Of a stretch of DNA of 64,000 bases, positions 1,962 to 54,829 are shown piece by piece (within the stretch, counting starts at the first letter, position 1; every line of letters begins with the position of its first letter). The stretch lies in the NCBI GenBank assembly GCA_965202835.1, contig CBDBCA010000006.1, forward strand, positions 806,035 to 870,034. Direction: 5' to 3'. A model generated the notes under the pieces. The model ran no database searches and was not told the origin of the DNA. It saw only the letters and a program-made list of their open reading frames with translations. The translations under genes and the position numbers were made by a program. This DNA comes from Alphaproteobacteria bacterium. GTDB lineage: Bacteria > Pseudomonadota > Alphaproteobacteria > MPNO01.

Positions 1962-1962
1962 G

Positions 1963-4562: not shown

Positions 4563-9095
<4,533 letters not shown>

Positions 9096-26269: not shown

Positions 26270-26359
26270 GGAGGGGTGGCCGAGCGGCTGAAGGCGCACG
26301 CTTGGAAAGCGTGTATACCGGAAACGGTATCGTGGGTTCGAATCCCACTCCCTCCGCCA
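26270..26359 (+). tRNA. tRNA-Ser (anticodon GGA), class II, CCA encoded
   Basis: The sequence reads GGAGGGGTGGCCGAGCGGCTGAAGGCG...CTTGGAAAG...GGTTCGAATCCCACTCCCTCCGCCA, with a long variable arm. Confidence 0.9.
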
Positions 26360-35107: not shown

Positions 35108-36229
35108 TTGCCCAGACCCAACCTCACCAACGCGCGAATCGCGGCGCTCGCGACGTGCAAGACCGCCTACGACATCCGAGACGGGAAGCTCAGGGGCTTC
35201 GGCGTCCGGGTGACGCCTTCCGGGCGCAGGCGCTTCTTCGTCCATTGCCAGCGCCGGGGCGAGCGCATCTGGAAGATCGTGGGCGACGCCGACGCGATGG
35301 ACATCGCCGAGGCGCGGTCTCTGGCCAAGACCATGCTGGCCGCGATCCGCCGGGGAGAGGTAGCCCCTGCCCGGCCCGAGCAGGCCCTCTTCGAGGCCGT
35401 CGCCGAGACCGTGTTCCGGCAGCACGAGCGCCTGTGGAAGCCGCGCACGCTCCATGTCAACCGGTGCTACCTCCGCAACCAGATCCTGCCGCATTTCGCT
35501 GGCCGCAACGTCGCCGGCATCGACAGCCGGGACGTGCGCAACTGGTTCGCCTCGCTGGCCGCCACCCCGGTCGCGGCGGACCGGTCCATGCCCATCCTCT
35601 CCGTCATCATGCGGGAAGCGGAAGCGATGGGTCTCCGACCCGAGGGCTCCAACCCGTGCCGCGGCATCCGCCGCTACCGCAGGAAGGGGCGCGAGCGGTT
35701 CCTGTCCGACGCCGAGATCCGGCGGCTGTCGGCGGTCCTGTCCGAACGGGAGGAAAGCCGGCCCCGCCAGGTTGCAGTTGTTCGTCTCCTTCTGCTGACC
35801 GGGTGCCGCAAAAGCGAGATCCTGACCCTCCGCTGGTCCGACTACCGCGAAGGCCGCCTGTTCCTCCGCGATTCCAAAACTGGACCCCGCACCGTCTGGC
35901 TGTCCCGGCCGGCACGTGCGATCCTCGACCGGTTGCTGCGGGAGGGCCCGTGGATGTTTCCGGCGCCGCGGGCGCGAGGACCACGGGATTCGGATTGGCT
36001 GGACCGCTTCTGGCGGGATGTCCGCGCCGAGGCGGGCTTCGGGGACGTACGCATTCACGACCTGCGCCATACGCATGCCAGCATCGCCCTGAGAGAGGGC
36101 GCGACCGTCCTCGCGATCGGAAAGCTCTTGGGTCATGCCGATCCGCAGACCACCCTCAAATACGCCCATCCCGCCGACGCCATGATCGCCGATGCCGCCG
36201 AGACCGTCGGCGCCGTGCTGGAGGGTTGA
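35108..36229 (+). CDS. tyrosine-type site-specific integrase (DUF4102/P4-like N-terminus)
   Basis: 373 aa. The N-terminus 'LTNARIAAL...YDIRDGKLRGFGVRVTPSGRRRFFV' is arm-binding-like. The catalytic C-terminus is 'HDLRHTHAS...LGHADPQTTLKYAH'. Confidence 0.9.
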   Translation: MPRPNLTNARIAALATCKTAYDIRDGKLRGFGVRVTPSGRRRFFVHCQRRGERIWKIVGDADAMDIAEARSLAKTMLAAIRRGEVAPARPEQALFEAVAETVFRQHERLWKPRTLHVNRCYLRNQILPHFAGRNVAGIDSRDVRNWFASLAATPVAADRSMPILSVIMREAEAMGLRPEGSNPCRGIRRYRRKGRERFLSDAEIRRLSAVLSEREESRPRQVAVVRLLLLTGCRKSEILTLRWSDYREGRLFLRDSKTGPRTVWLSRPARAILDRLLREGPWMFPAPRARGPRDSDWLDRFWRDVRAEAGFGDVRIHDLRHTHASIALREGATVLAIGKLLGHADPQTTLKYAHPADAMIADAAETVGAVLEG

Positions 36230-36232: not shown

Positions 36233-37378
36233 GTGCCTGCAAGGGACCGAAGGAAGCTCACCGACGCTGCCATCGAGCGCCTCCGCCCCCGTGCGGGGGA
36301 ATTTACCGTCTGGGACAGAAGCGTACCCGGCCTCGGGGTGCGGGTGCGCCCGACCGGCGGCAAGACCTGGGTCCTGCTGGAGGAGATCGGGGGACGCGCG
36401 AAGCGTGTATCGCTTGGGCCGGTATCGACGATGGCGGTGGCGGAAGCGCGGCGCGCGTGCCATCAGCGCCGGGCAAGACCGGAGCCGGCGGAGCCCGCCC
36501 GCCCCATGAGCGCCGTCCCGCTCTTCCGCGAGTTCGTGGAAGGAGAGTGGAAGGGGCCGCATTTCCACCGCTACAAGCCGGCGACGCGCAGGGGCGTGTC
36601 GTCCGCGCTGGAGGGACGGATATTGCCGGCCTTCGGATCGAGACCGCTGGACCGCATTACCCCGGCGCAGGTGCGGAAATGGTTCGACGCCGCCAGCGGA
36701 GCCGCCCCCGGGGGCGCGAACAGGGGGCTCCAGCTCCTCCGCCAGATCATGAATTTCGCCATCGCCCGGGGGCATATCGAGAAAAACCCGACACAGGGCA
36801 TCCGGCCCAACCGACGCCGGAAACTCACGCGGTTTCTCTCGCGCGAGGAAATCGCCCGACTGCACCGGGCGCTGGACCGGCGGACCGGAGAAGGTGGCCG
36901 CCGGCAGGCGGACATCATCCGGCTGCTGCTTCTGACCGGATGCCGCAGGGGCGAAATCCTCGGGTTGCGCTGGTCCGAGGTCCAGGGGGACGGCATCTTC
37001 CTTGCCGATAGCAAGACCGGGCCGCGACGGGTGCCGCTCAACTCCCAGGCTCGAACCATCCTCGACAGGCAGCCGCGGACGGAAAGTCCCTTCGTGTTCC
37101 CTTCCCCGCTCGATCCGTCCCGGCCGCGCAGCCGCCAACTATCGATCTGGGACCGGGTTCGCGAGGAGGTCGGCATCGAGGACGTTCGCCTTCACGACCT
37201 TCGCCACACGCATGCCAGCCACGCGGTGATGAACGGCGTGCCCGTGCCCGTCGTCTCGCGCCTGCTCGGACACTCCAACGTGCGCATGACGCTCAGATAC
37301 GCCCATCTTGGGGACCGCGAGGTCGAGGAAGCAGCGGAGCGCGTGGGGCAGGCCATCGGCGAACTCATGGGCCTGTAG
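36233..37378 (+). CDS. second tyrosine-type integrase, paralogous to the first
   Basis: 381 aa with a GTG start 4 nt after the stop of integrase 1. It has the same domain pattern ('LTDAAIERL...FTVWDRSVPGLGVRVRPTGGKTWV'; 'HDLRHTHASHAV...LGHSNVRMTLRYAH'). Confidence 0.9.
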   Translation: MPARDRRKLTDAAIERLRPRAGEFTVWDRSVPGLGVRVRPTGGKTWVLLEEIGGRAKRVSLGPVSTMAVAEARRACHQRRARPEPAEPARPMSAVPLFREFVEGEWKGPHFHRYKPATRRGVSSALEGRILPAFGSRPLDRITPAQVRKWFDAASGAAPGGANRGLQLLRQIMNFAIARGHIEKNPTQGIRPNRRRKLTRFLSREEIARLHRALDRRTGEGGRRQADIIRLLLLTGCRRGEILGLRWSEVQGDGIFLADSKTGPRRVPLNSQARTILDRQPRTESPFVFPSPLDPSRPRSRQLSIWDRVREEVGIEDVRLHDLRHTHASHAVMNGVPVPVVSRLLGHSNVRMTLRYAHLGDREVEEAAERVGQAIGELMGL

Positions 37379-37431: not shown

Positions 37432-37605
37432 TTCGGTGCCCGACAGCGGGTTCTCCAGACGATTCATGATCGGTTGGGAACGTAGATCCTGCCCGCCATT
37501 CGGCGCCCGGGTCACCGCCAACTTGAACATCGGATCCGCGCGCAGGCCGTCGGCGCCCTCCTGGCGATGCGACATTCGATAGCGGTTGCCGTATGGCGAG
37601 CGCCA
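37432..37605 (-). mobile_element. IS1380-family transposase gene fragment (N-terminal piece only)
   Basis: The minus-strand translation '...LRADPMFKLAVTRAPNGGQDLRSQPIMNRLEN' matches from memory the conserved IS1380 N-terminal motif (DP.fKl...r.p....LaSQPTlSRlEN). No intact ORF is present. Confidence 0.5.
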
Positions 37606-37643
37606 TGCCATCTTGTGGTTGACAACAAGATGGATGGTCCAAA

Positions 37644-38123
37644 GTGCCAGTGAAATACACACCGGGTCAACTCCGGAGCGTGATAGGTATCTCACAACCG
37701 ACTTATCGCCATTGGAAGAAGGCTTTAGGGCCACTTCGTCGGGAGGTGGGACATAGTCCATGTTTCACTGCCGGGGATCTGCTTGCTGTCGCAGTGGTAC
37801 GTAGCCTGACGGCCGATTTTGCTATTCGCGTCGGCGCGATCTCAGCCGTTGCCGAAGCCCTGTTCAACACTTGCAATGTGGGGGTTTGGCCGGCTCTTGA
37901 GCGCGGCAAGCTAGTCGTCGATCTGGCAAACAAGGACCTAAAGCTGTTATCGGAGGCCGATATCATCCTTTGTGACGCAGCGGTATTGGTTATTCCGATC
38001 GGACCAATAGTCGGGAAACTGCGTAGTGCGCTACTGACTGAGGGGCAACTTGATAGTCAAGAGTCGCTTCGTTTTCCACCAACGCCGTTGCCATCGAAGA
38101 TTGAGGCAGCGACGAGGCTATAG
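37644..38123 (+). CDS. hypothetical protein with a putative N-terminal HTH; first gene of the MTase-PIN operon
   Basis: 159 aa with a GTG start. 'LRSVIGISQPTYRHWKK' looks like a MerR/AlpA-type HTH. Its stop is 2 nt before the MTase start, and it marks the start of lower-GC DNA. Confidence 0.5.
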   Translation: MPVKYTPGQLRSVIGISQPTYRHWKKALGPLRREVGHSPCFTAGDLLAVAVVRSLTADFAIRVGAISAVAEALFNTCNVGVWPALERGKLVVDLANKDLKLLSEADIILCDAAVLVIPIGPIVGKLRSALLTEGQLDSQESLRFPPTPLPSKIEAATRL

Positions 38124-38125
38124 CT

Positions 38126-40621
38126 ATGAATGCCGTTGACGTCATCGCTGAGGCCGCACGATCTACAGGCTACCGTGAAGAAGCGATCGTACGCGACTAT
38201 CTATTCGCCGACGTCCTCGATCCTACAGACACGACCAGGGAGGTTGCTCTGGCTGCATTCACTCAGACACCTCCATCGTACCGATCAGCTGCTCTCGCCG
38301 CGGTATCGTTACCAGGGGGAGGTGACACGACAGAATTGGTGCAGGCGCATCGAGCCCTAGGTGCACCTCTTCTATTCGTCATTGAGGGAGAACAACTTTC
38401 ACTCTGGCAGGTTCGCGGCGACACACCGCGCTGCCTATATAAGAACCTGCGCGTTGGGGATGTATCGGGAGTGTTCGAACGGAACCAGGAAGAATGGTGC
38501 CCCGACGCGATCCATCGAGCAAAATCGATCGGTGCCATCGACGAGAGCTATCAGTTGGACTTCGTGGATCTCGGTTTATTGCCGGCATTAGAAGGTGAGA
38601 TTCATGCCAAACTTGATCGTCTAATAGTCGACTCGCTTGTCGCTGCGACCGATGACCAAGACGGAAGGCTACCAGAAACGCGAATACTTTTTCCGGTCCT
38701 ATTTCGCCTGCTAGCTGCAAAAGTTTTGCAGGACCGAGGTCACCCCGACGCCGAGGGCTGGAATGTCAATAATCTAGTCGAGACATTGCATGGCATCGAA
38801 TCTTACTATTCTCTTCCATCCGTAATGATAAGAGGTCATCGAAATCTACGGTCAGCCTTCTCAGCCGCTTGGGAATGTCTGCGTAAAGGTCTTAGCTTCG
38901 CCAATATATCATCAGACGACCTCGCCTTTGTCTACGAGAATACGCTCGTTACTCCCGAAACCAGAAAGCATTTTGGTACACATAGTACGCCGCGGCAGCT
39001 TGCCGAATATGCGGTGGCAAGATTAGAGCTTCATCGATATGAGCCAGACGCATTACGCATTTATGAACCATTTACGGGTGCTGGAACATTCCTTGTGTCA
39101 GCGCTTCGGCATATGCGGGAATTGTTGGCGGTCGAATGGAGCGACGCCCAACGTCATGACTTTCTTGTTGAACGTATTTCAGGTGATGAAATCGATCCTT
39201 TCGCCTGTGAAGTGGCAAAACTGTCTCTGATACTGGCAGATTATCCCAATAGGAATAGCTGGTGTATTACACAAACAGATCTTTTCAAAGATAATTTACT
39301 AATGGAGCACATGTCTGGTCGTAATATCATTTTGTGTAATCCGCCATTTGAAAATTTCAATGGCGAGGAACGATCTCGTTATCCCATCGCTAACACCTCC
39401 CTTTCCAAACCTACCTTGGCGTTAGAAGCGGCGCTTGCCGCGCACCCGTTTGCGCTTGGCTTCGTTCTTCCCCATTCATTCCTTACGAGCAAAAAATACG
39501 CCAGACAGAGAAAAAAAATCGAGAAATTATATGACCACGTAGAATTGGTGGAGTTACCCAAACATATATTTCGCGCTTCTGTCATTGAATCATCTCTCCT
39601 GATTGCCCGCAAGTCTTGCACAAGACAACCCTCTATGCTCAGTTTGCGGTCAACGGAGGTGTGGGGTCGTGATCGCACCGACTTCCTGAAAACCGGAAGG
39701 ATCACGACGGCACGTAACGAGCAGCGTGTTATTCAGGATTTTCCTACCGGTGACCTTTGGATTCCAGCGCTCAAGGACATTTGGGACTATCAGAAGGCGC
39801 TACCGCGATTGGACGACCATTTCATCATTCACCGAGGACTTGAGTGGCAATCGGATCAAGATGCAGCTTGGAGCAATCACCGTCGAACCGGTTACAGGCG
39901 GGGATTCCACACAGCGCGCAAGTTGAAGCAGTTTCAGTTGCCGAAACCCGTATGGCTCGACTGTAGGGAAGAAAGACTACGAGGCGAGGCAATCAAGCTC
40001 CCGTGGCACCAGCGGAAACTTGTTGTAAATGCCGGACGTTTAAGCATTGGTCCGTGGCGCATTGCGGCAATGACAGACTGGGACGGATTGTTGTGCTCTC
40101 AACAGTTCTTTGGACTATGGCCGCGTGAGCATCTTTCAGATCGTCAGCTTCTGGCATACACGGCGACCTTGAACGGTCCACTTGCAAATGCCTTTCTCGC
40201 CACTCATTGGTCTGCAAAGGGCATTAGAATCTCCTCCGTTCGCCAAATACCGATACCTCCATTTCTACCATTACATATTGGAGAATTAGTGGCAGAATAT
40301 GCTTTTAAGAAACGTGCAGAGAGCGGATTAGATTTGTTGGACGGCGAACAGCAAGAAGCTCTTGCAAAGATTGATGCGGAGGTCCTAAGGTCTTATGATT
40401 TACCCCTAAGATTTGAGCGGCAATTGTTGAAGTATTTTCGAGATGCAAAACGTCCTGTTGCACACAATTGGCAACACTGGGACGTAATGGATCCGACTCC
40501 AGGCCTTACGCTTGCAGAACGTACGTCTAGACGCTTCGACGTTCAAACCTCATGGATTCGTGAGGTCTTCCAGCCTTTGCCAGATGATGAAGCAGAGATA
40601 CTGAGAGCGTATGGGGGATGA
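38126..40621 (+). CDS. N6-adenine DNA methyltransferase-like protein (gamma-class, Eco57I/TaqI-like) with large N- and C-terminal extensions
   Basis: 831 aa. It has motif X 'FGTHSTPRQLAEY', motif I 'YEPFTGAGTF' (39062-39091) and motif IV 'NPPF' (39338-39349). The C-terminal ~400 aa is TRD-like. I recognised no PD-(D/E)xK nuclease motif in the N-terminal ~290 aa. Confidence 0.75.
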   Translation: MNAVDVIAEAARSTGYREEAIVRDYLFADVLDPTDTTREVALAAFTQTPPSYRSAALAAVSLPGGGDTTELVQAHRALGAPLLFVIEGEQLSLWQVRGDTPRCLYKNLRVGDVSGVFERNQEEWCPDAIHRAKSIGAIDESYQLDFVDLGLLPALEGEIHAKLDRLIVDSLVAATDDQDGRLPETRILFPVLFRLLAAKVLQDRGHPDAEGWNVNNLVETLHGIESYYSLPSVMIRGHRNLRSAFSAAWECLRKGLSFANISSDDLAFVYENTLVTPETRKHFGTHSTPRQLAEYAVARLELHRYEPDALRIYEPFTGAGTFLVSALRHMRELLAVEWSDAQRHDFLVERISGDEIDPFACEVAKLSLILADYPNRNSWCITQTDLFKDNLLMEHMSGRNIILCNPPFENFNGEERSRYPIANTSLSKPTLALEAALAAHPFALGFVLPHSFLTSKKYARQRKKIEKLYDHVELVELPKHIFRASVIESSLLIARKSCTRQPSMLSLRSTEVWGRDRTDFLKTGRITTARNEQRVIQDFPTGDLWIPALKDIWDYQKALPRLDDHFIIHRGLEWQSDQDAAWSNHRRTGYRRGFHTARKLKQFQLPKPVWLDCREERLRGEAIKLPWHQRKLVVNAGRLSIGPWRIAAMTDWDGLLCSQQFFGLWPREHLSDRQLLAYTATLNGPLANAFLATHWSAKGIRISSVRQIPIPPFLPLHIGELVAEYAFKKRAESGLDLLDGEQQEALAKIDAEVLRSYDLPLRFERQLLKYFRDAKRPVAHNWQHWDVMDPTPGLTLAERTSRRFDVQTSWIREVFQPLPDDEAEILRAYGG

Positions 40622-40627
40622 GCGATC

Positions 40628-41131
40628 GTGGATGGGTGCATTCTTGACACTAGCGTTTTATCCATTTGCTTGGATTCTTCACACTCGCGGCACGACGACA
40701 TACAAACCGAATTTACAAAGATAGAGAAGAATGCAGTGTTATTTCTTTCCACGATTTCTTTGGGGGAGTTGGAATTCGGTGTGCGGCTTGCAAAGGTGTT
40801 TGGTGGGAGACCGCTGCCGGTGCTTGAGCAGATGTTGATCGATGCACGAAGGTATGGAATTCTGGATGTGACTAGCCATACCTCCGCATCTTATGGTGAA
40901 TTGAAATCCAATCTTGCGGAGACCTATCTCGCGGACGCAAGCCGTAGGGGCCGACGACGTTGGGTGGAAGATTGGATTGATAAGACGAGCGGGAAAAGGC
41001 TTCAGATAGATGAGAATGACTTATGGATATGTGCTCAGGCCAAGGAACGCGATTTGTTGGTTGTCACTGCAGATAAACGCATGCAGCGGATCGCTGATGC
41101 AGACACGGAAGTGCGTCTCCGTATAATATGA
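40628..41131 (+). CDS. PIN-domain nuclease (VapC-like) without a recognisable VapB partner
   Basis: 167 aa with a GTG start. The PIN acidic residues are in the contexts 'ILDTSVL', 'LGELEFG', 'ENDLWICAQA' and 'VVTADK'. It is in the same reading frame as the MTase, separated by TGA plus 2 codons. Confidence 0.75.
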   Translation: MDGCILDTSVLSICLDSSHSRHDDIQTEFTKIEKNAVLFLSTISLGELEFGVRLAKVFGGRPLPVLEQMLIDARRYGILDVTSHTSASYGELKSNLAETYLADASRRGRRRWVEDWIDKTSGKRLQIDENDLWICAQAKERDLLVVTADKRMQRIADADTEVRLRII

Positions 41132-41427: not shown

Positions 41428-42078
41428 TCACTCCCACCACCAACCCATCATCCCTTCTTCCACATACGCGTGGACATCCAGCTTGCCGTCGCCGAAACGG
41501 ACGGTATTCACAATATCGTTCAATAGCTCCTTTTCATCGGACGCGTTTCTCGATCTCCACAGGGAGACGAACAATTCTGTCTCCCCGCCGTAGTGGTCGA
41601 CGAGCGTCGTGAAAATCGCGTTCGTTTCGCCTTCGACTAGCTCCATCGCCAGTTCGTACAGCCGCTCGTCGTCGACGTCCTCGTCTTCGTCAAGACTTTC
41701 CGCGACGGTTTCGAGTGTGCCCATCCGACGAGCGAGCTCCCACAGATCCTCGGTGTCCACATTCAAGGAATCGAGATACCGAGAGAGGGGAACGTGTTCG
41801 GAAAAATATCCCCCGAGTTCCGAGAAATTCCCGGCCGCCTGGTAAATGCCGAGATACATCGCCAACAGGCAAACAGCCCGTAGCCTGGGCACCGTCCGGT
41901 CGAACCCGACTTCCTCGGACTCGGCTGCGCCGGTCAGACCCGCCTTCTCCAACGCGCCCCAAGATTCCCTGTACCATCCAAGTTCGGGCGTGTCGACGAT
42001 GACGCAACCGTGTTCCCGGAAGAATCCCTCGACCTGAACCCACCGGAGCGATTCCCTTTCAGATGCCGAGGTCGTCAT
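41428..42078 (-). CDS. hypothetical, extremely acidic protein co-transcribed with hsdRMS
   Basis: 216 aa with about 45 Asp/Glu versus about 17 Lys/Arg by my count, including a 'SLDEDEDVDDE' run. Its start overlaps the 3' end of hsdS by 20 nt. I recognised no family. Confidence 0.6.
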   Translation of the reverse strand: MTTSASERESLRWVQVEGFFREHGCVIVDTPELGWYRESWGALEKAGLTGAAESEEVGFDRTVPRLRAVCLLAMYLGIYQAAGNFSELGGYFSEHVPLSRYLDSLNVDTEDLWELARRMGTLETVAESLDEDEDVDDERLYELAMELVEGETNAIFTTLVDHYGGETELFVSLWRSRNASDEKELLNDIVNTVRFGDGKLDVHAYVEEGMMGWWWE

Positions 42079-43300
42079 CGCTCCCTCTGTTGGGTTCGTC
42101 GTGCGCGATATCCAGCAACCGATTCATCAGAGAGGCGGTCAGGGCATTGGCACTCTCGGAGCCGGAATGTCCAACGTTACCCGCGGACCGAACGCTGTTG
42201 AGGATTTGCACGAATTTACTTTGCCGCTCCAACGGTGGAACAGGAAGCTTCAAGCTTTCCAAGCTACGAATGTTGACGTTGTAGTTTCCCGCAGTGGTCC
42301 GTGCCAGCCGTAAAATGGCCTGCCGCATCGGCGGTAGTTCAAGGCATGTCGAGACATATCCGGGGATTGCGCGCGCACTCGACGCAAGACGTAATCGAAT
42401 AAGGTACGAAGCGTATGCTGCTTTGCGGCCATCGGTGAATACTGCGCATCTGCCTACATAATCCGGATTGCCGTTTGTACGAACGAACAAAAGGTCTCCT
42501 TGTTCCAAGAGGAGTGTTTCTGTTTCTCTTTCAGTAAGAGAAGTAAATTTAATGTCATGCCAATTGATCGCGTTTCCCAATACGTTGGGAATACGCAGGA
42601 TCGGAATATCCCCATTGCGTGGCTCACTTAGGCATTTCCTTGAAGTGCCGTACCGAAATTCGTGGGCGAGTTGCGCAAGGCTCTCAATACCCCAACCCAT
42701 CGGATTCTCGACCGGATCGCCGAACATCCTGACGAACAGCGCGGGGACGAATTCCCGCAGCCGGTCCTGAGCCTGCGCGCGCAGCTGCTCGATTTTCGCC
42801 GCCCGGTTCAGAATGCCGACGATCCGCTGTTGCTCATCGAGCAATGGAAGGGGAACAGGGAGCTCCGCAACATCTTTGGGATACAAGTGTAGCCCGGTTA
42901 CCGCGCCCCTCAGCGCCGAGCGTCCCGCGTCGGAGTTCAACCACCAGTATATTAGCGCTGGCTCGATTCGGTCACGATTAGGACGCACAATAGTCCATTC
43001 GCCAACCGGTAAGGAACGTTCCACTTCCTTTTCTGCGAAGTACAGTTTGCTGCCGACATGAGAAGCACTATGTGCGGAATTTAGAATTAGAATGTCGTTT
43101 TCGTTTATCCACTTGGACGGGTATTTTAATGCAAAGTCGGTATCCACAAAATTGTCAAATTCACCAGAAAAACGTCGATCTGGTCTAACATCTTTAACCT
43201 TTAATACTGGATGTCCCGATGATCGCTTGTCCTTCTTCGAGGGTGTTTTCCCGTTGAAGACTTCCGCCACCTCACCAATGGGAACATTGGTGCCGCTCAT
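42059..43300 (-). CDS. hsdS: Type I restriction-modification system specificity subunit
   Basis: 413 aa with two target-recognition halves separated by the conserved 'LPLLDEQQRIVGILN...' and 'LPVPPLERQSKFVQIL' helices. It has an ATGA overlap with hsdM. Confidence 0.9.
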   Translation of the reverse strand: MSGTNVPIGEVAEVFNGKTPSKKDKRSSGHPVLKVKDVRPDRRFSGEFDNFVDTDFALKYPSKWINENDILILNSAHSASHVGSKLYFAEKEVERSLPVGEWTIVRPNRDRIEPALIYWWLNSDAGRSALRGAVTGLHLYPKDVAELPVPLPLLDEQQRIVGILNRAAKIEQLRAQAQDRLREFVPALFVRMFGDPVENPMGWGIESLAQLAHEFRYGTSRKCLSEPRNGDIPILRIPNVLGNAINWHDIKFTSLTERETETLLLEQGDLLFVRTNGNPDYVGRCAVFTDGRKAAYASYLIRLRLASSARAIPGYVSTCLELPPMRQAILRLARTTAGNYNVNIRSLESLKLPVPPLERQSKFVQILNSVRSAGNVGHSGSESANALTASLMNRLLDIAHDEPNRGSDDDLGI

Positions 43301-44928
43301 TCTGCCGCGGGCTCCCGCACCGCCTCCGCCAACTCGTCGATCTCCCCCAATATCTCCGTCTCTATGGCTCGCAGCTCGTCCAGTATCTCCAGCGGATCGC
43401 GATGCTCCACCCTCGCCCGGCTCTGCGGCCGGTGGCGGTTGGCGCTAAGGTTGAAGTCGGCTTCGCGGATGGCGTCGGCTTCGGCGAACCACCAGTTTTC
43501 GGTCCAGTCGGCATCTGGGTCGCGGTCCCGCCATGCCGTCCATCCCTCCTCCCGGTCGCGGAACGCCTCGATCAGGCCGGGCAGGTCGTCTTCGTCGATG
43601 GGTTGGTCGTGGTTGGCGTCCAACTTGAAGCCGTCGTTCTCGGCGTGGAGGAACATGACGCGTCCGGTCGTCCCGTCCTTGCGGAAGACGAGCACCGAGG
43701 TCTTGACCCCGGCATAGGGGTTGAACACGCCGCCGGGAAGGGACAGCACCGCCTCCACTGTGTTGTTCTCGACCAGCTTGCGGCGCAGCTCCCGGTGCGC
43801 GCCCGTCGAGCCAAACAGCACACCCTCCGGCACCACGACGCCGCAGCGCCCGCCGTCTCGCAGGTGGTTCAGCATGTATTGCAGGAACAGGAGCTCCGTC
43901 TGCGCGGTGCGCCCGACCTTTACCTCCTCGACGATCCGGTCCTTGTCGAGCCGGCCGGAAAATGGCGGGTTGGCGAGAATGACATCGAAGCCCTGCACCG
44001 GGAGCCCGAGTTCCGCCTTTGCCGCGCGGTCGAGCGAGCGGGTGAGCGCGTCGCGGCGCAGGATGCGCACCCGATCGAGACCACGCAGCGTCAGGTTCAT
44101 GGTGGCGAGGCGGACCATTTGAGGGTCCACGTCGGCACCGTAGAACGTCGCATCCTCCAATTGTTCGACGGCCTCCCTGCCCAGCATATCGCCCAGGCCG
44201 CGCCGGATCGTCTCGCCCTCCGCTTCCACCTCCTCGATGCCGGCGGGCGACGAGTTGGCGAGCCGGATATGATCCCACGCGGCCACAAGGAAGCCCGCCG
44301 TCCCCGCCGCCGGGTCGTAAATCGTCTCGCCAATCCTGGGATCGACCAGCCGGACCAGGGCGCGGATGACGTGGCGCGGCGTCCGGAACTGGCCGAGCTC
44401 CCCCGCCTGCCTGATCTGGCGGAGCACGTGCTCGAACAGGTCGCCCTTGGTGTCGGCGTCCACCCGCTCCAGCTCCAGGTCGTTCAACTGGCTCACGACC
44501 TGGGTGAGCACGTTGGGCTCGTCGATCACCAGCCGGGCGCCATCCATGAAGTCGGTGACGCCGCTGGCCGCGAGTTCGGCATGGAAGGGGAAAACCTCCT
44601 CCCGTACCCAGTTGACCAGCGGCGGCCCGTTCAGCGCCTGCGCCCAGGACGACCAGCGCAGGCGTTCGCGCGGCACCGTCTCGACGCCGGTGTCCGGCGC
44701 GTTGCGCGGATTGCGCAGCGCCCATTCGCCTTCGAAGGCGCTGACATGGGGTTCGGAGCCGGGCCGGCGGGCGGCGCGCACGCGGGCCGCATCCGCCGCC
44801 TCGTACATGTAGAAATAGATCAGGAAGCTGAGCTGTTCCGCGTTCTGGGCGGGGTTGGGATAGCCGCCGCCGTACAGGTAATCGCGGATGCGGTCGATGC
44901 CGCTTCGGAGCTCGGGCGTCATGGGCAT
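43297..44928 (-). CDS. hsdM: Type I restriction-modification system methyltransferase subunit
   Basis: It has an HsdM N-terminal domain, motif I 'DPAAGTAGFL' and motif IV 'NPPF' (ILANPPFSG). The start is set at the Met after the hsdR stop; the ORF track start at 44976 would overlap hsdR. Confidence 0.9.
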   Translation of the reverse strand: MPMTPELRSGIDRIRDYLYGGGYPNPAQNAEQLSFLIYFYMYEAADAARVRAARRPGSEPHVSAFEGEWALRNPRNAPDTGVETVPRERLRWSSWAQALNGPPLVNWVREEVFPFHAELAASGVTDFMDGARLVIDEPNVLTQVVSQLNDLELERVDADTKGDLFEHVLRQIRQAGELGQFRTPRHVIRALVRLVDPRIGETIYDPAAGTAGFLVAAWDHIRLANSSPAGIEEVEAEGETIRRGLGDMLGREAVEQLEDATFYGADVDPQMVRLATMNLTLRGLDRVRILRRDALTRSLDRAAKAELGLPVQGFDVILANPPFSGRLDKDRIVEEVKVGRTAQTELLFLQYMLNHLRDGGRCGVVVPEGVLFGSTGAHRELRRKLVENNTVEAVLSLPGGVFNPYAGVKTSVLVFRKDGTTGRVMFLHAENDGFKLDANHDQPIDEDDLPGLIEAFRDREEGWTAWRDRDPDADWTENWWFAEADAIREADFNLSANRHRPQSRARVEHRDPLEILDELRAIETEILGEIDELAEAVREPAAE

Positions 44929-44938
44929 GGGTGTGTTC

Positions 44939-47050
44939 TCAGGACTCTTCCTTGCTTTCCCCGAAGACCGCCGCATTGAAGCCGGCGATCAGCCGGGCCA
45001 GCGGTTCTTCGCCACCGAACACCCGCCGCGCCTGATCGTAGCCGCCCAGCGCGCTGAAAGGGTGCGCGTCGAAATCGTAGTCCCCGAAGGCGGTCATGGT
45101 CGTCGCGTCGGCTCGGGCCCGGCTTCCAATCAGTTTGGCCCAGCGCGCCTGCTCGGCATCGAAGTCGTGCGCCTTGTGCCAGGATTCGAACCGAATGCCG
45201 ATCTCCGCCGCGCGGGCCTCGTGCTCGGGCGTCCTCACGATCCTGCCGTCCTCGTCGAGGGTCAACCATTCCCGGCTCGCCGGGTCGATGCGATCCCCCA
45301 CGTCGAGCGTCAGCAGCGCCCGCGGGTCGCCGGTGCCGGTCGGCTGGCGCCTGGTCCCGATCCCACCGGGAATGTCGCCATCGTCGTCGCCGTGGAAATC
45401 CGTCACGCCCACGAAATCGAACATCGTGAAATCGGTCTTTTTGATGTGCGGCGCCTTGCGTGTCCCGCGACCGCGCATCTGCCGGTAGAGGATCGCACTT
45501 TCGGTGTAGCGTGCCATCACGAGGCCGACCACTTCCGGGCAGTCGAAGCCGGTATCGAGCATGTTCACGCTGACCAGGATCTTCGGGAAGTCCTCGTCCT
45601 TGAAGCGCTTGATGATGGCGGTGGCGTCCGGCGCCGGACCGCCGCCCACGTCGCTCACCACGAAATCGGCGTAGCGCACCGTCGGATGGGGTTTCAGGTC
45701 GGCGAAATGCTCGTCGAGCATGGTCGCCAGGGTCTCCGCATGGCGCCGCGTCACCGCGAAGACGATGGTCTTGCCCCAGCTCGGGAACCGCCGCACCCCG
45801 TCCCTGCCGGTGAAGCCGTTTTCCAGGACTTCCCGGAACTCGCGCACGATGGCGCGGTTGCGCTCGGGGATGGTGAACTTGCGTTCCAGCGCGCGCGGGT
45901 CGACGGAGATGGTGTCCGAGGCCGCGAACAGCTCTTCGAACTCGGCCCTCGTCGCCTCGTCCATCGCGGTCCAGTCGAGCTCGTCGCGGCGAACCGGGAA
46001 CCCGCCCTCGGCGGCGGTCTTGACCGTCAATGCGCGGTAGATGCCGTAGGGCACCAGATAGCCCTCGGCGATCGCCTCGCGAAGCCCGTAGCGGAAGGTC
46101 GGCCTGTCGACCTCGAAGAAGCGGAGCGTGTCGCGGACGAACAGCCCGTCCTCGGGGTCGGCCACCTCGTCCGCCACGGCGGCGGTGCAGGGCGTCGCGG
46201 TCAGGCCGAGTTGGATGGAATCGAAATGCCGCAACACGCCGCTCCACTTGCCGTAGATCGAGCGGTGGCACTCGTCGGTGATCACCAGGTCGAAATAGCC
46301 GGGCGAGAGGTCGCGGTATTCCGCGATCATCGTCTGGAGCGTGGCGATGGTGATCCGCTTGGCGCGGTCGAAGCCGCGGCCGGGGCGCAGCACGTGGCAG
46401 GGGTAGTCGCGGAGATGGTCGGTGAAGGCGTCCTCGGCCTGTCCCGCCAGCGCGATCCGGTCGACGAGGAACAGCACGCGGGTGACGGCCCCGGCCTCGA
46501 ACAGCCGCTTGACTAAGGCCGCCGCGGTGCGGGTCTTGCCGGTGCCGGTCGCCATCTCCACCAGCAGCTTGCGGCGGCCGCGCGAGACTTCGGCGGACAG
46601 CGTCTCGATGCACGCGATCTGGTAGTCGCGATCGACGATCCCGCGGTCGATTTCGACGGTCGAGAGGTCGCGGCGGAGCGAGCGCGCGGCGATCCGCCGC
46701 TCGAGATCGTCCTGTGCATAGAACCCCGCGATCCGGCGCGTGTGCGCGTCCGTCTCGCGGTCGAGGAACCGGACCTCCTCGCCGTTCGACAGGAAGACGA
46801 ACGGCACGTCGAGTTGTTCCGCGTAGTGGCGGCCTTGGTCCTGAGCGAGGATCGGGTCGACGCTGGCACGCTTTGCTTCGAGCGCCGCCATCGGCCGTCC
46901 CGCGCGGTCGCAGAGCACGTAGTCGGCCAGCGTGCCGTCGGGGAGCGCGTATTCGAACAGGACGCTTGCGCCGTCCGTGATGTCCCAGCCGGCATCCTTG
47001 AGGAGCGCGTCGATCTTCGCGCGCGCGAAGGCCTCGGTGGTGCCGGTCAT
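44939..47050 (-). CDS. hsdR: Type I restriction enzyme endonuclease/translocase subunit
   Basis: It has an N-terminal PD-(D/E)xK motif ('ADYVLCD...ALEAKR'), SF2 helicase motif I 'MATGTGKT' and motif II 'DECH'. The start is placed at Met30 of the tracked ORF (MTGTTEAFARAKIDALLKDAGW). Confidence 0.9.
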   Translation of the reverse strand: MTGTTEAFARAKIDALLKDAGWDITDGASVLFEYALPDGTLADYVLCDRAGRPMAALEAKRASVDPILAQDQGRHYAEQLDVPFVFLSNGEEVRFLDRETDAHTRRIAGFYAQDDLERRIAARSLRRDLSTVEIDRGIVDRDYQIACIETLSAEVSRGRRKLLVEMATGTGKTRTAAALVKRLFEAGAVTRVLFLVDRIALAGQAEDAFTDHLRDYPCHVLRPGRGFDRAKRITIATLQTMIAEYRDLSPGYFDLVITDECHRSIYGKWSGVLRHFDSIQLGLTATPCTAAVADEVADPEDGLFVRDTLRFFEVDRPTFRYGLREAIAEGYLVPYGIYRALTVKTAAEGGFPVRRDELDWTAMDEATRAEFEELFAASDTISVDPRALERKFTIPERNRAIVREFREVLENGFTGRDGVRRFPSWGKTIVFAVTRRHAETLATMLDEHFADLKPHPTVRYADFVVSDVGGGPAPDATAIIKRFKDEDFPKILVSVNMLDTGFDCPEVVGLVMARYTESAILYRQMRGRGTRKAPHIKKTDFTMFDFVGVTDFHGDDDGDIPGGIGTRRQPTGTGDPRALLTLDVGDRIDPASREWLTLDEDGRIVRTPEHEARAAEIGIRFESWHKAHDFDAEQARWAKLIGSRARADATTMTAFGDYDFDAHPFSALGGYDQARRVFGGEEPLARLIAGFNAAVFGESKEES

Positions 47051-47093
47051 CGCTTCACGTGCGCCGACCGCGACGGCAATTCGGGCGCGGCTG

Positions 47094-47438
47094 TCACCGC
47101 TTGCGCCCCGATCTGGCGATGCGCTGGACCTCGGCACGTTGGAGGCGGAACTGCCTAGCGATCCCAGCCGGTTTCACACCCGCCTCCAGCGCCGCCCGGG
47201 CGACCCGTTCGAGACCGAGAGAGATCGCGCTCGCTCGTTTCCCGGCGGATGGGCCGGAACCGCTCCTCGATACCGCGTCTCTACGGTTTCCGCGACCATC
47301 GCCCGTTTCATTTACCGTCAAGCCGCGCCGCCGCACCTCCGCCGTTGCCGTGCGCAGCAATTCCTCCAGTTGAGAGTCGTTGAGATGGCGGAGCGACCGC
47401 GCAAGGTTACCCGGCAGGGCGAGTTTGGGCGGATCCAT
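47094..47438 (-). CDS. small hypothetical protein with a C-terminal resolvase/Hin-like HTH
   Basis: 114 aa. 'GVKPAGIARQFRLQRAEVQRIAR' resembles HTH_7/HTH_23. It lies immediately upstream of hsdR on the same strand. Confidence 0.45.
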   Translation of the reverse strand: MDPPKLALPGNLARSLRHLNDSQLEELLRTATAEVRRRGLTVNETGDGRGNRRDAVSRSGSGPSAGKRASAISLGLERVARAALEAGVKPAGIARQFRLQRAEVQRIARSGRKR

Positions 47439-48493: not shown

Positions 48494-49660
48494 TCAAGAA
48501 ATCGCGAGATCGAGAGCCGTGGCACGCTGCTTTCTTTCTTCGAAAGCTCGTATCGGCTCGTCGAGAGGGGGAAGGATTTCATGAAATCCACTGTGCAAAT
48601 TCCGAAACATCCGAGCAAGAATTCCAAGTAGATCGTGGACGTCCTTCTTATTCTCATGAATGTGCTGCTTCAGCCGTACCGTCGTGTCTCTACTATCGTC
48701 CAGGTACTTTTGATCCACTTCGCCTGCATTATGTTCGTAAACATGACGACGATGAAACATCAAAATAGTCTGCTTGCGCTCATTCTCCGAAATTTCAGAA
48801 AAGATGTCAATATCAAACCAAGTAAGCAGAATTTCTGAGACCTCAGAAAGATCGTGAAAGCCCTGCTTCAATAGCCGTTGTTTGCGACGTCGCGACATTG
48901 GAACGAGATTGGCCAATTGCATCCCTACCTGCCGGACAAAAGACTCGAACGCCGCAACAGCGTCCCTCAAGCAATCTTCCGGAAGACTATCTGCGTTCAG
49001 TTGCGCTCGAATTTCTGGGACGACACTATTCTCAAATTCCATTAGATCATTTCGCGTGCAACACATGGAGCAATATCCAAATCTACCCAAGATATCGTTG
49101 AACTCATTGCAAGCGGAACAATTGAATTTCTTCTGTTGACTTTCTTCAGATACGTAGAACGAGGGTCTTTCTTCGTCCTTAAACGCAGCATCGGCGACCG
49201 CATCCATATCAATTTCTACTCTGCCGTCTTCCTTTGAGTCGAGGGCTTCGAACAGAGTGTTACAGTAGTGCTTCACGTAGCGAAGCTGCGCTTCGGAGAG
49301 AAACTGATAAGGGGCAAACGACGCTGCACAGTACGGACAGAAATGGGGCCAAGGGCCGCTGCGCCAGTACCCTCCACAATGTGGGCATTTGTGACCAAAA
49401 TAACCTTCGCTATCGGACGCAATTAGCACAGGAACACATTCAGAGAATGGCGGCGGATTCCACGGCTGTCCGATTCCACGAAGTTCAATGCATTCCACTA
49501 CCACTCCCTGGGGAAGGGCGTAGACGCCAATCAAGGAATGAGGAACGGATCGACTAGACTTGAACGTTACCTGATAAGCTTGTCTTCCATCATCATCCGT
49601 CTTGAGATCGAACGTGATCTTACCACCAGAGTGGCTCACTTCTACGAAGTCTCTGCTCAT
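48494..49660 (-). CDS. hypothetical protein with two zinc ribbons and a C-terminal HEPN-like Rx4H motif
   Basis: 388 aa from AT-rich DNA. It has Cys pairs C92xxC95...C108xxC111 and C181xxC184...C197xxC200, plus 'FHRRHVYEHNAGEVD' (R305-x4-H310). It is monocistronic. Confidence 0.6.
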   Translation of the reverse strand: MSRDFVEVSHSGGKITFDLKTDDDGRQAYQVTFKSSRSVPHSLIGVYALPQGVVVECIELRGIGQPWNPPPFSECVPVLIASDSEGYFGHKCPHCGGYWRSGPWPHFCPYCAASFAPYQFLSEAQLRYVKHYCNTLFEALDSKEDGRVEIDMDAVADAAFKDEERPSFYVSEESQQKKFNCSACNEFNDILGRFGYCSMCCTRNDLMEFENSVVPEIRAQLNADSLPEDCLRDAVAAFESFVRQVGMQLANLVPMSRRRKQRLLKQGFHDLSEVSEILLTWFDIDIFSEISENERKQTILMFHRRHVYEHNAGEVDQKYLDDSRDTTVRLKQHIHENKKDVHDLLGILARMFRNLHSGFHEILPPLDEPIRAFEERKQRATALDLAIS

Positions 49661-52450: not shown

Positions 52451-54829
52451 TCAACCGACGATTGCCTGTCTGGCTCGGCCGACACTTTCGGACACCTTAT
52501 CCGCGCCCGTTCTCGCTCTATCAATGTCAGATAATGAACCGAGCTCTTGTTGTATCAACGCCAAGTGATAAACTAAACTCGTGCGTTCGGCTGTTGACAG
52601 TGCTATAAGTCTCGCGCGTACAAACGGCTCGATCTCCATTAACACTTGAATTGCATGGTCTCTCCTACTTTCTTCGCCAATCATTTGTCTAATTTCATCG
52701 ATTTTTCCAACAATCTGATCAAATCTTTGCACCGTTTCTCCGCTAACTTCCCGCTGTTCTATTAGCAACATGAGTCTCAATGCAAAGGTATCTATTTGAA
52801 AGGTAAGGAACCCGGGACTATCCTTCGCCCTTGCGTAGGCTGTTCGAATTAAGTCCTCGGCCATATATAGATCGTCTGCTGCCGTCATTAGTATGGAGTA
52901 CTGCAACCAAAAGAGTGGCTCTTTATTCACATCAATATCCCGCCTCAATTTTTCGTACAAACCAATCAGCAATTCAATTCTGCGAGGCTCTTTCACCAAT
53001 GCTCGATTTAAGATAGAGAACCTCATAAGACTGCTTAGTATTCCTTGATAGCGTTTTTGGTGCTTTCTCTTTACCGCCTCGACTATTATTGGGTACACCC
53101 CATCCAATATGTCAGCTGCTGCTATATGAGTTTGAATGATATATTCTGAAAAAATAGGAGACCTTACATGGACCTGATCGTCATCCAGTCGAAAAATTTC
53201 AGTAGCGATGGCTCGAAATCTCGCCATAGCGGCATACGCGTCACAATTGGTTACGCTGCGTAAGAAACCAGGATCTACCTCATGTCCGGCCCATCTCAAC
53301 AAATGGCTTGCTACAATTATCTTCCGAATTTCAGAATCATCCATCAAGGGTTTGAGTTCGTCTGATATTTTTTGTTTGATCTCTGAATGATCATATAGCG
53401 TAGTTACTACTTCACGAAAATCTTTACAGTTTCGAATGCCTTCTTCCAAATTCTCCGTCCGTATGCCCGATTGATCCAACAGCACACAAAATTCTTCCAA
53501 ATCGCTTCGACTTACTTTATTAAGGTTAAGACGCTGTATCGGAGCAGGAAAGCGATTTTGTATTTCATGCAATCTAACGTCCTGTATGCCAGTGCGCACA
53601 GCAACAATCACCTTTGCCATAGGAAGGCGTTCTTTCATCTCGTCGATAATATCTCTTGCGGAATCATAATCATCGAACATTAGTACGGCTTCTTTAATAT
53701 CACGCAACACTGCCACATCTTCTGGCAGTAGCGTTGTATTTGTTCTTGCTAAAAAACATTTGTACTCTTTTTGGGCAAGTCTGTGAGCGAGAATATAAAG
53801 GAAAATAGATTTTCCATTTCCCAAAAGTGAATGCAGAATTAACGTATGTGTGTTATCAAGCAACGCGGCAGCCTCCTCGGCCTGAGCTCGACGGGCCACG
53901 ATATACTCACTATTTGGTAGAGTCGATAGGCAGCGTCGAAAATTGAATGTTCCGTAAGTTACGAGATTCAAAATTTCCAATGCTGTGGGAGACGAAAGGG
54001 ATTTTTTGTCCATGAGTGGATCCAAATATCGAAATGATCGTAAGGTGTGAATGTTGCCTGTAGACGTTGGCTCCGAAAGGTTCCTGCAATGGTCAGAGAA
54101 ACCTTCTATTCCTACAGGCAGCACTTCACCATAAGGGGCGATTCGGCGAGAGAAAATAGCATCAACTGTGCCACTGGTAATAAAATATGTCTTTTCTGTT
54201 GTCTCTCGATGCTGCAATAAAATTGATGAAATATGGTAGTCCCTCAGGCTATATCCCACAAAGATACACATTTGACAGAATCGGAGATCGTGAATGAATT
54301 CGTCGTACCACAAGGATTTTTCAAAATGTTGCCGTACATACGAACTTTCCGTCAGCACTAGCTGTTCCAATATATTATCTTGATTAGCAAGACGAATCAT
54401 TCCATGTAAATGGACGATCGTCCCAGGGGCCATTCTGTTCGGCTTCGGGTCAGTGTAACTGAAACTGTTGATGTTTTGTTTCGAATTGTGATAATGTAAT
54501 TCCAACCCATCGTCGTAGTTGGTGGTGTAGATGCGACGCCAAGGTTTCTGTAGTACGTTGACTTGATGTTCGTGTAGTTCCCGTACCGTGAAAAGTTCGT
54601 ACAGCATTTGGTACAAATTCAATTTCTCACGAGAATTCACTTCTTCTGCCAGAGTTTGAAAGTCGTAGAGATTTTCGTCCACGCTCAATGCGTGAGCAAG
54701 TTCGCGTTTCAATTCTTCTCCCGTTGGGATTGCATTGCCGCGAATGTTGATAGCGTTACGTGAAAAGCCGGAACCAAGGAACAAAATAGACTCAGCTGTA
54801 CGAAGTTCCTTTAGTTGGTCAATGCTCAT
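52451..54829 (-). CDS. SIR2-domain plus P-loop (STAND-like) NTPase with a helical C-terminal region; candidate single-gene antiphage protein (SIR2-STAND / Avs5-like architecture)
   Basis: 792 aa from very AT-rich DNA. The SIR2_2-type motifs are 'LFLGSGFS', 'YTTNYDDGLE' and 'IVHLHGM'. Walker A is 'SLLGNGKS' (aa 334-341) and Walker B is 'VLMFDDYD' (aa 382-389). The C-terminal half is about 400 aa and helical. Confidence 0.7.
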   Translation of the reverse strand: MSIDQLKELRTAESILFLGSGFSRNAINIRGNAIPTGEELKRELAHALSVDENLYDFQTLAEEVNSREKLNLYQMLYELFTVRELHEHQVNVLQKPWRRIYTTNYDDGLELHYHNSKQNINSFSYTDPKPNRMAPGTIVHLHGMIRLANQDNILEQLVLTESSYVRQHFEKSLWYDEFIHDLRFCQMCIFVGYSLRDYHISSILLQHRETTEKTYFITSGTVDAIFSRRIAPYGEVLPVGIEGFSDHCRNLSEPTSTGNIHTLRSFRYLDPLMDKKSLSSPTALEILNLVTYGTFNFRRCLSTLPNSEYIVARRAQAEEAAALLDNTHTLILHSLLGNGKSIFLYILAHRLAQKEYKCFLARTNTTLLPEDVAVLRDIKEAVLMFDDYDSARDIIDEMKERLPMAKVIVAVRTGIQDVRLHEIQNRFPAPIQRLNLNKVSRSDLEEFCVLLDQSGIRTENLEEGIRNCKDFREVVTTLYDHSEIKQKISDELKPLMDDSEIRKIIVASHLLRWAGHEVDPGFLRSVTNCDAYAAMARFRAIATEIFRLDDDQVHVRSPIFSEYIIQTHIAAADILDGVYPIIVEAVKRKHQKRYQGILSSLMRFSILNRALVKEPRRIELLIGLYEKLRRDIDVNKEPLFWLQYSILMTAADDLYMAEDLIRTAYARAKDSPGFLTFQIDTFALRLMLLIEQREVSGETVQRFDQIVGKIDEIRQMIGEESRRDHAIQVLMEIEPFVRARLIALSTAERTSLVYHLALIQQELGSLSDIDRARTGADKVSESVGRARQAIVG

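Follow-up and report, generated by a model that had tools for sequence, protein, structure and literature searches.

A methyltransferase-centred three-gene module with exchangeable downstream effectors: a candidate hybrid of restriction-modification and toxin-antitoxin systems

The A-B-C module and its proposed function

A stretch of 64,000 nt from an Alphaproteobacteria bacterium (contig CBDBCA010000006.1, positions 806,035 to 870,034; assembly GCA_965202835.1), in the following referred to as the window, harbors three closely packed genes, A, B, and C, which encode a MerR-like helix-turn-helix (HTH) protein, a large protein resembling single-chain restriction-modification (R-M) enzymes, and a VapC-like PIN protein, respectively. 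The best explanation for this arrangement, to which we assign a probability of roughly 55%, is that B is a methyltransferase (MTase) scaffold with a C-terminal tail that docks and silences the toxin encoded directly downstream, that the PIN protein is the toxic output, and that the module serves in defence or genetic conflict. The open reading frames (ORFs) are the following:

37644-38123, + strand: gene A, ORF of 159 aa with a GTG start
38126-40621, + strand: gene B, ORF of 831 aa
40628-41131, + strand: gene C, ORF of 167 aa with a GTG start

The three genes are located on the same strand with gaps of 2 nt between A and B and 6 nt between B and C. Their GC content is 0.48-0.53 across 38-41 kb versus about 0.66-0.69 in the flanks. 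A first-pass annotation made from the DNA letters had already described these ORFs, their spacing, and the AT-rich patch, and all of this was recovered in the ORF list and the GC profile. It had also pointed out that the PIN gene is not accompanied by a VapB antitoxin gene; accordingly, when + strand ORFs with a minimum length of 50 aa were considered, no VapB-like one was found between B and C or in their vicinity in the window.

According to the proposed mechanism, B would be derived from single-chain Type IIG/IIL R-M enzymes and would have a nuclease-fold domain without a canonical catalytic motif. The killing function would be provided in trans by the gene directly downstream, which is the VapC-like PIN gene in the window. 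The tail of B (residues 778-831) would dock the toxin and keep it inactive, and B would thereby act as a giant antitoxin and as a sensor. Protein A, which is translationally coupled to B, would likely be a DNA-binding and autoregulatory partner. By methylating its own sites in the host DNA, B would set a self mark. When unmodified target DNA is met, or when B is disabled, the toxin would be released or activated, and growth would stop in the sense of an abortive infection. Such a reaction would likely serve to fend off phages or other kinds of mobile DNA. Four elements of this mechanism are what we infer from the comparisons described below: the contact between tail and PIN protein, the triggering event, the part played by methylation, and the defensive phenotype.

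Conservation of the module

The anatomy of the module, its conservation, and the swapping of effectors together with matching tails were observed directly in the compared loci, which are designated by L numbers. Databases contain more than 1300 relatives of B of about 830 aa, and the A-B-effector arrangement recurs in about 160 independent loci, which is far beyond chance. A scan of reference genomes with one genome per species yielded 178 matching loci, of which the best 80 were analysed. In 77 of these 80 loci, which belong to several phyla, a PIN gene is located immediately 3' of B (tblastn). The loci without a downstream PIN gene are contig ends or disrupted copies, such as L067, in which the PIN gene is truncated by an inserted gene pair encoding an S8 peptidase and an AAA-ATPase. 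The first-pass annotation had suggested examining whether this kind of MTase and PIN genes co-occur across genomes, and this linkage is conserved. Overall, about 120 loci keep B and PIN adjacent with a few nucleotides between them, and the gaps between B and C are mostly -4 to +6 nt.

A homologue of A was detected upstream of B in about 60 of the 80 reference loci by tblastn. The clade without a tblastn match has a diverged A with 17-20% identity, the same N-terminal HTH, and likewise a Q..L.FPP motif conserved at its C-terminus, so that an A-type ORF, found by tblastn or by inspection of ORFs, is present 5' of B in nearly all 80 loci. Among the non-redundant loci, 65 contain an A-type ORF, and the stop of A overlaps the start of B by 4 nt in 42 of these. 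A fourth conserved gene was not found, as no flanking gene is common to more than 5 of the 80 reference loci. For the same reason, a fixed linkage to Type I R-M genes was rejected. In L087 and L088, the A-B-PIN cassette is also located inside a Type I R-M locus; this linkage is not general.

A profile of the N-terminal domain (N-domain) of B collected about 505 clusters at 50% identity. Without exception, the domain is located at the N-terminus of the proteins, which have about 820-1000 aa. These clusters stem from Proteobacteria, Acidobacteriota, Chloroflexota, and other phyla. In RefSeq, A, B, and C are labelled 'hypothetical protein', 'N-6 DNA methylase', and 'PIN domain-containing protein', respectively. 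In L087-L090, the public gene calls miss or misplace A (7523-7981) and PIN (~10491-11000), both of which are intact according to tblastn; thus, automated annotation under-reports the module.

Architecture of protein B

In Pfam, B matches N6_Mtase (residues 263-500, E 1.7e-11) and also MmeI_Mtase and Eco57I. Its translation carries the motifs FGTHSTPRQLAEY, EPFTGAGTF, and NPPF, as had been noted in the first-pass annotation for a gamma-class N6-adenine MTase. An AlphaFold2 (AF2) model of B has a mean predicted local distance difference test score (pLDDT) of 79 and a predicted template modelling score (pTM) of 0.71. When the full-length model was compared to the PDB with Foldseek, BpuSI (3s1s, 3.5e-18) was matched best, then DrdV (7lo5, 1.9e-17). 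Further matches are CamA and M.BseCI, which cover the MTase and the target-recognition domain (TRD), and then BrxX/PglX. The protein can be divided into the following parts:

B 1-109, 38126..38452, + strand: N-domain with predicted PD-(D/E)xK fold (isolated-domain model, pLDDT 87.5)
B 110-300, 38453..39025, + strand: helical spacer or N-terminal region of the MTase (secondary structure of the AF2 model)
B 301-510, 39026..39655, + strand: gamma-class N6-adenine MTase core (Pfam N6_Mtase, motifs I and IV)
B 511-700, 39656..40225, + strand: beta-rich TRD (AF2 model, structural matches)
B 701-777, 40226..40456, + strand: C-terminal helices up to R776-P777 (alignment of PIN-, RES-, and DUF433-type B proteins)
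B 778-831, 40457..40618, + strand: effector-specific tail of the PIN type, the proposed docking and neutralising element for PIN

The best Foldseek matches of the N-domain are a putative restriction endonuclease (REase) domain (9y1l, 5e-4) and the N-domain of DrdV (5.7e-4), followed by matches to DUF820 (3ot2), TT1808, BpuSI, and the N-domain of HsdR. The underlying isolated-domain model was calculated with an alignment that is less diverse than the homologues derived from the loci. PDB sequence searches with B and with the N-domain profile returned matches to the MTase core and nothing for the N-domain, so that the domain was identified by fold comparison only. Together with the full-length Foldseek matches, the predicted REase fold argues for a complete architecture, and B thus has, according to the models, the full domain order of a single-chain Type IIG/IIL enzyme.

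Residues G15, D29, F45, T46, P49, S51, R53, L78, A80, P81, W94, and K133 of the N-domain are invariant. A conserved D...(D/E)xK constellation on the beta-hairpins of the N-domain was not found in 30 diverse sequences or in a distant branch, which includes Chloroflexota and of which five genomic contexts were analysed; the sole invariant or near-invariant acidic residues within B 1-140 are D29 and E19. Because this constellation is missing, the N-domain is probably inactive as a nuclease or repurposed. The first-pass annotation had recognised no nuclease in the N-terminal ~290 aa of B; this has to be revised with respect to the fold, as residues 1-109 resemble an REase domain, and it holds with respect to a conserved catalytic motif.

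In contrast to the catalytic motif of the N-domain, MTase motifs I (E314, P315, G318) and IV (N405-P406-P407-F408) are invariant in 64 diverse members and are also kept in the distant branch. The helical region and the MTase core are the best-conserved parts of B with per-domain values of 0.58 and 0.57, respectively, compared to 0.46 for the TRD. The TRD contains many invariant Trp and Gly residues, and matches to TaqI_C were obtained in distant members. Judging by these motifs, B is most likely a working DNA N6-adenine methyltransferase.

The last invariant segment common to all types of B is R776-P777. The following residues 778-831 have mean pLDDT values of about 64-68, which is below the preceding TRD, and the final residues reach 35. 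In PIN-type members, this tail has the conserved motif RPxxHxWxxW...PxLxLxE...W...F.P.P..E...L..Y.

Effector exchange and matching C-terminal tails

In several relatives, the PIN gene is replaced by other toxin genes, and B has a different C-terminus. In L079, B has 947 aa and is followed by a gene for a RES toxin (E 1.1e-18) instead of PIN; its extra C-terminus shows a weak match to the toxin-binding domain of Xre/MbcA/ParS proteins. This RES-type subfamily comprises at least 70 clusters with B proteins of 932-948 aa and is represented by loci L079, L082-L084, and L086. The order A, long B, and RES is found in Sphingomonas, Xanthobacter, Thalassospira, and on a Rhizobium plasmid. In L082, the Xre-MbcA-ParS_M model was matched with 28.3 bits compared to a Pfam cut-off of 27.8, and the respective _C domain was matched weakly. 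The B protein of L081 carries a fused DUF433 domain (E 1.2e-17), and the next gene, whose start overlaps the stop of B, encodes a PIN-like toxin of the DUF5615 family (E 3.8e-11). RES-Xre and PIN-DUF433 have been predicted as toxin-antitoxin (TA) pairs (Makarova et al. 2009, PMC2701414). The relatives of the module contain both tandems, with the antitoxin domains located on B and not on an Xre HTH protein. All types of B are colinear up to R776-P777 and wholly divergent beyond this point in an alignment of PIN-, RES-, and DUF433-type proteins.

A similar diversity was found in a census of metagenomes, which covered 80 loci, 62 of them with a scorable downstream ORF. The effectors, with PIN called by its family hidden Markov model, are distributed as follows:

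PIN of the same family: 40/62 loci
metallo-beta-lactamase (MBL) fold: 15/62 loci
HNH endonuclease: 4/62 loci
PIN_3: 1/62 loci

The HNH effectors belong to PF01844 and are PtuB-like, and the MBL effectors resemble the models for LmuA, MBL proteins associated with DRT, and PDC-M48B. Both length and sequence family of the tail track the effector class:

PIN class: tail of 54-71 aa, one family, 92/92 members
HNH class: tail of 73-96 aa, own family
MBL class: tail of ~101 aa, own family
DUF5615 class: tail of 126 aa, own type
RES class: tail of 119-172 aa, own type (L093 separate)

PIN_3 effectors likewise occur with a tail family of their own. Single-linkage clustering of the tails had merged classes via one marginal match and via the PIN-type part of the L094 tail, and these classes were separated by inspecting the individual matches. 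By eye, the tail of L093 had been regarded as MbcA/ParS-like, which was not supported by Pfam. Identities of the B cores indicate that the RES type arose at least twice and that the DUF5615 type falls within the RES clade, with 73% core identity. The HNH types share one tail family, yet each of their cores is closer to PIN types than to other HNH types. These repeated switches of tail and effector indicate cassette behaviour: judged by sequence comparison, tail and effector form a mobile cassette on a constant scaffold.

Two loci have further extensions of B. In L094 (3501-6902), B has 960 aa with a PIN-type tail and a HEAT-like repeat (27.4 bits compared to a cut-off of 27.7), and a 171-aa protein without family is encoded downstream. 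In L091 (3501-6503), B has 1000 aa with a C-terminal extension of 230 aa without family and without an obvious effector downstream; this extension may be a fused effector.

The first-pass annotation had offered two interpretations for the pairing of MTase and PIN. One of these, in which the MTase-like protein would act as the neutralising partner of PIN in a TA pair, gains comparative support from the cognate antitoxin domains in the tails, from the tracking of effector class by the tail, and from L092, which is described below. The other, an MTase-controlled effector, has to be modified. In its literal form, with PIN as the cognate nuclease, it is weakened by the presence of RES proteins in the same slot, and the broader idea is retained by the HNH and MBL effectors. 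The literal form corresponds to an R-M system with a nuclease acting in trans, in which B would provide specificity and modification, and the downstream protein would cut unmodified foreign nucleic acid and spare the host. The domain order of B, which is that of Type IIG enzymes with a seemingly dead nuclease domain, would agree with such a system, as would the HNH proteins (PF01844, PtuB-like) and the MBL-fold proteins, which are possible DNases, in the effector slot of relatives. We nevertheless regard it as quite unlikely, because the same slot holds the TA toxins RES, DUF5615, and VapC-like PIN, for which cognate antitoxin domains are fused to B, and an antitoxin domain is needed only for an effector that is dangerous to the host. 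In addition, RES proteins are reported to be NAD+-targeting toxins and not nucleases, and RES effectors of this NADase type argue against PIN simply being a restriction nuclease. Similarly, PIN proteins of the VapC type are RNases; the NCBIfam VapC match of C is weak.

The PIN protein

Protein C matches the Pfam PIN family with E 2.2e-11 and 44.9 bits, compared to a curated cut-off of 23.6, and its VapC matches in NCBIfam and to PDB entry 3zvk are weak. Acidic residues as in the active site of PIN toxins of VapBC systems are present: among 59 members, E47, D131, and D149 are conserved in at least 95% and D7 in at least 80%. The insertion ASRRGRRRWVEDWIDKTSGKRLQIDENDLW, which the first-pass annotation had pointed out, consists of ~25 aa at residues ~100-127 and is conserved including W116. 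An NTPase domain was not found by Pfam in the 167 aa of C. Based on these features, C is predicted to be a VapC-like PIN nuclease and a toxic effector.

The MerR-like protein A

The copy of A in the window has no Pfam match. MerR_1 was matched by 10 of 23 members of the A family, and the family profile aligns with the MerR-type HTH of CarH/LitR in a PDB sequence search (E 0.006). In the distant branch, the ORFs upstream of B match MerR_1 above the cut-off. These results specify the HTH protein proposed in the first-pass annotation as MerR-type. The N-terminal HTH is followed by an uncharacterised C-terminal domain that ends in a conserved Q..L.FPP. Protein A is thus predicted to be a transcriptional regulator or a partner of B. 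A perfect 6+6 palindrome, ATGGCGAGCGCCAT (ATGGCG-AG-CGCCAT), is located at 37593-37606, about 40 nt upstream of the start of A, and could be an operator for A. In a scan for promoters and terminators, counts equalled the shuffled expectation.

MerR-like proteins with a truncated HTH have been predicted as antitoxins of PIN toxins (Makarova et al. 2009, PMC2701414). As A is MerR-like, it could accordingly be the true antitoxin of PIN in a MerR-PIN pair split by the gene of an unrelated MTase, with B as a passenger. In the predicted pairs, the MerR-like protein adjoins PIN, whereas here B separates the two. Moreover, homologues of A are retained in RES-type loci, where RES replaces PIN; in L016 and L081, a small RHH-like ORF takes the place of A; and L092 contains B and the same PIN family 3' of it, with no A-family ORF detected. 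From these three observations, A does not appear to be required as the dedicated antitoxin of PIN. The tight adjacency of B and PIN described above would also be unexpected for a passenger. This interpretation is therefore largely excluded, and only a very small probability is assigned to it.

The preferred assignment of A is that of a regulator within a module centred on B. The models that matched the MbcA/ParS-type tail fused to B in RES-type loci were those for the middle and C-terminal domains only, and no HTH model was among them. In the simplest view, DNA binding and autoregulation would be contributed in trans by A. Thus, A most likely provides the DNA-binding and autoregulatory function that normal type II antitoxins have and that B lacks.

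Evidence weighing against the proposed function

Several results weigh against the view that B silences a toxin by its tail and that the module is a defence system. Regarding the tail, a Pfam scan of 22 PIN-type tails returned no family, and no likeness to known antitoxins was detectable; for this reason, homology of the tail to VapB cannot be claimed. In a mirror-tree analysis, the partial correlation between tail and PIN was about 0, and PIN distances agree most closely with those of the N-terminal and helical regions of B, which the control overlaps. That the N-domain is inactive is deduced from motif inspection and not from residue-level superposition. Among the variants with HNH and MBL effectors, some could restrict DNA directly and not kill the host. 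Finally, the module has 0 matches in 50,697 phage records and is rare in a plasmid collection with 3 matches only. As it is absent from the former and rare in the latter, these collections say little about its ecology.

Genomic neighbourhood and mobility

The region around the module in the window contains the following features:

35108-36229 and 36233-37378, + strand: two tandem tyrosine integrases (Phage_integrase and Arm-DNA-bind_3), directly upstream of the module
41428-42078, - strand: acidic ORF of 216 aa without family match, overlapping hsdS by 20 nt
42059-43300, - strand: hsdS of a complete Type I R-M operon
43297-44976, - strand: hsdM of the same operon
44939-47137, - strand: hsdR of the same operon
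48494-49660: ORF of 388 aa without Pfam match in a further low-GC patch at 48-50 kb
52451-54829, - strand: protein of 792 aa with SIR2_2 and STAND-NTPase domains in a second low-GC patch (GC 0.42-0.45)

The tandem integrases delimit an integrated island; the nearest tRNA gene, tRNA-Ser at 26270-26359, is not close to them. The 792-aa SIR2_2/STAND protein is probably encoded by another defence gene. With the Type I R-M operon, the SIR2-STAND gene, and the two integrases, the module in the window resides in a defence island.

In other loci, the flanks of the module comprise integrases, type IV secretion system (T4SS) or conjugation genes, transposases, and other defence genes. The module is located beside genes for DarT/DarG-like, HEPN, and HEPN-Toprim proteins in L082 (1226-2526, 7727-10835; Sphingomonas) and beside a Shedu SduA gene in L085 (9178-9993; Agrobacterium plasmid). 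These neighbours are consistent with residence in defence islands. Loci L065-L068 are near-identical in a Sphingomonadaceae bacterium, Acidovorax, Sphingopyxis, and Sphingobium and have VirB11/VirD4-like conjugation genes upstream (positions 1-9000), which together indicate carriage on a conjugative element. An identical contig of 3725 bp with A, B, and part of PIN was found in metagenome-assembled genomes (MAGs) of several genera (L019-L026). Judging by isolate names, these MAGs appear to come from one study, and the contig is either a binning artefact or the result of a very recent spread of a small element. Altogether, A-B-C is a self-contained and horizontally mobile module built around B.

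Mobility could also be explained by selfish addiction. R-M and TA systems both act as addiction modules, and the module might accordingly be a TA cassette that is joined to an orphan MTase and carried by mobile elements, without a role against phages. Upon loss of the element, a stable toxin would kill the cell, or loss of methylation would matter for the element only. The association with integrases, conjugation genes, and plasmids and the near-identical copies across genera in L065-L068 are in line with this explanation. It is considered very doubtful, because diversification into PtuB-like and LmuA-like effectors is typical of immune systems, and because the module is repeatedly placed in defence islands together with Type I R-M, Shedu, DarTG, HEPN, and SIR2-STAND genes. 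Furthermore, classical post-segregational killing needs a labile antitoxin, for which a fused and presumably stable antitoxin of 830 aa is ill-suited.

Comparison with known systems

With Type IIG/IIL enzymes such as BpuSI, MmeI, and DrdV, B shares a nuclease-fold domain, a helical spacer, a gamma-class N6-adenine MTase, and a TRD in one chain. It differs from them by the non-conserved catalytic D...(D/E)xK of its N-domain, and only B has an effector-specific tail, an obligate downstream effector gene, and usually an upstream MerR-type gene. Type II TA systems (VapBC, RES-Xre MbcTA/ParST, DUF433-PIN-like) resemble the module by the downstream TA toxin, the antitoxin-like element encoded upstream of it, and the tight coupling of both. 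In contrast to VapBC, there is no small VapB, and the gene just upstream of PIN encodes the 831-aa protein B, as it does across the family. The toxin-binding domain of the module is fused to an MTase scaffold of ~830-950 aa without its own DNA-binding domain, a separate MerR-type protein is encoded upstream, and the PIN-type tail matches no VapB. In CapRel, an antitoxin element is reportedly linked covalently to a larger protein with a sensing role, and CapRel resembles B in this respect.

Septu PtuAB and the LmuA variants of Lamassu are similar to the module in combining one sensor or scaffold with interchangeable effectors. Their scaffold is an ATPase, whereas that of the module consists of MTase and TRD, and the scaffold-specific models miss B. 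The PglX/BrxX proteins of BREX and mad2 of MADS have a gamma-class N6-adenine MTase core like B and are among its best PADLOC matches. Membership in MADS, BREX, or DISARM was rejected, as the likeness to B does not extend beyond the MTase core. With the NCBIfam MAD2 equivalog model, B scored 17.4 bits compared to a cut-off of 720, and none of the partner genes of BREX and MADS (mad1-8; brxA/B/C, pglZ, brxL) was seen in loci with annotated neighbours.

The anticodon nuclease PrrC is held latent by the Type Ic R-M enzyme EcoprrI and is activated by the EcoprrI inhibitor of phage T4 (PMC1484252, PMC2610378). The module resembles PrrC-EcoprrI, and also RloC, in that a latent RNase is linked to, and presumably silenced by, an R-M-type protein (PMC1484252, PMC2610378). 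PrrC consists of an ABC-ATPase and an anticodon nuclease and is encoded inside a complete Type Ic hsd operon, whereas the effector of the module is a PIN, RES, HNH, or MBL protein, its partner is a single Type IIG-like protein, the fused adaptor tail is the apparent link, and there is no sequence relationship. The Type I operon in the window runs in the direction opposite to the module and does not accompany it in a conserved manner, and the module is thus not of the PrrC type.

The PrrC precedent allows an explanation in which B guards against phage anti-restriction proteins. B would be active in R-M or modification, and the toxin docked to it would be a backup defence that is freed only by an anti-restriction protein of the phage. 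The trigger would be a DNA mimic such as Ocr or a Stp-like peptide acting on B, and recognition of unmodified DNA would be irrelevant. The docking of an antitoxin-like tail fits this explanation equally well, and B is structurally similar to BrxX/PglX, whose complexes with Ocr exist in the PDB. However, the invariant MTase motifs and the TRD would be unexplained unless B has a primary function too, and with an N-domain that lacks the catalytic motif, B alone probably cannot restrict. Such a guard is unlikely as a full account of the module, and the mechanism preferred here additionally gives methylation the role of a self mark.

Searches of PADLOC v2 and NCBIfam 20.0 returned no named system or model for the module: system-specific models were not matched, and the signals were confined to the MTase core of B, which is generic, and to a weak resemblance of C to VapC. 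Full-text literature searches, the coverage of which was incomplete, revealed no account of an MTase-fused antitoxin or of this cassette. This agrees with the first-pass annotation, which had not recognised the arrangement as a named system. Taken together, the comparisons point to an apparently undescribed hybrid of R-M and TA systems built from known kinds of components. As part of the same mechanism, it is tentatively suggested, at less than even odds, that the module represents a distinct immune class, in which a nuclease-dead Type IIG-like MTase would discriminate self from non-self by methylation and, without cutting the invading DNA, would release a docked toxin via an antitoxin-like adaptor. 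With similar reservation, such a class might combine the logic of R-M with an abortive-infection output and with plug-in effectors of the PIN, RES, DUF5615, HNH, and MBL types.

Significance

If B indeed holds and releases toxins, R-M and TA or abortive infection, which are among the oldest ideas on how bacteria defend themselves, would be joined in one protein scaffold, and the occurrence of a VapC-type toxin without VapB would be explained. The series of tail-effector cassettes would then be a natural set for dissecting how antitoxin domains are grafted onto sensors. For catalogues of defence systems, the module would add a widespread unannotated family of about 500 clusters at 50% identity. 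In methylome studies, it would also be a candidate source of the orphan N6-methyladenine (m6A) motifs of many bacteria from soil and water.

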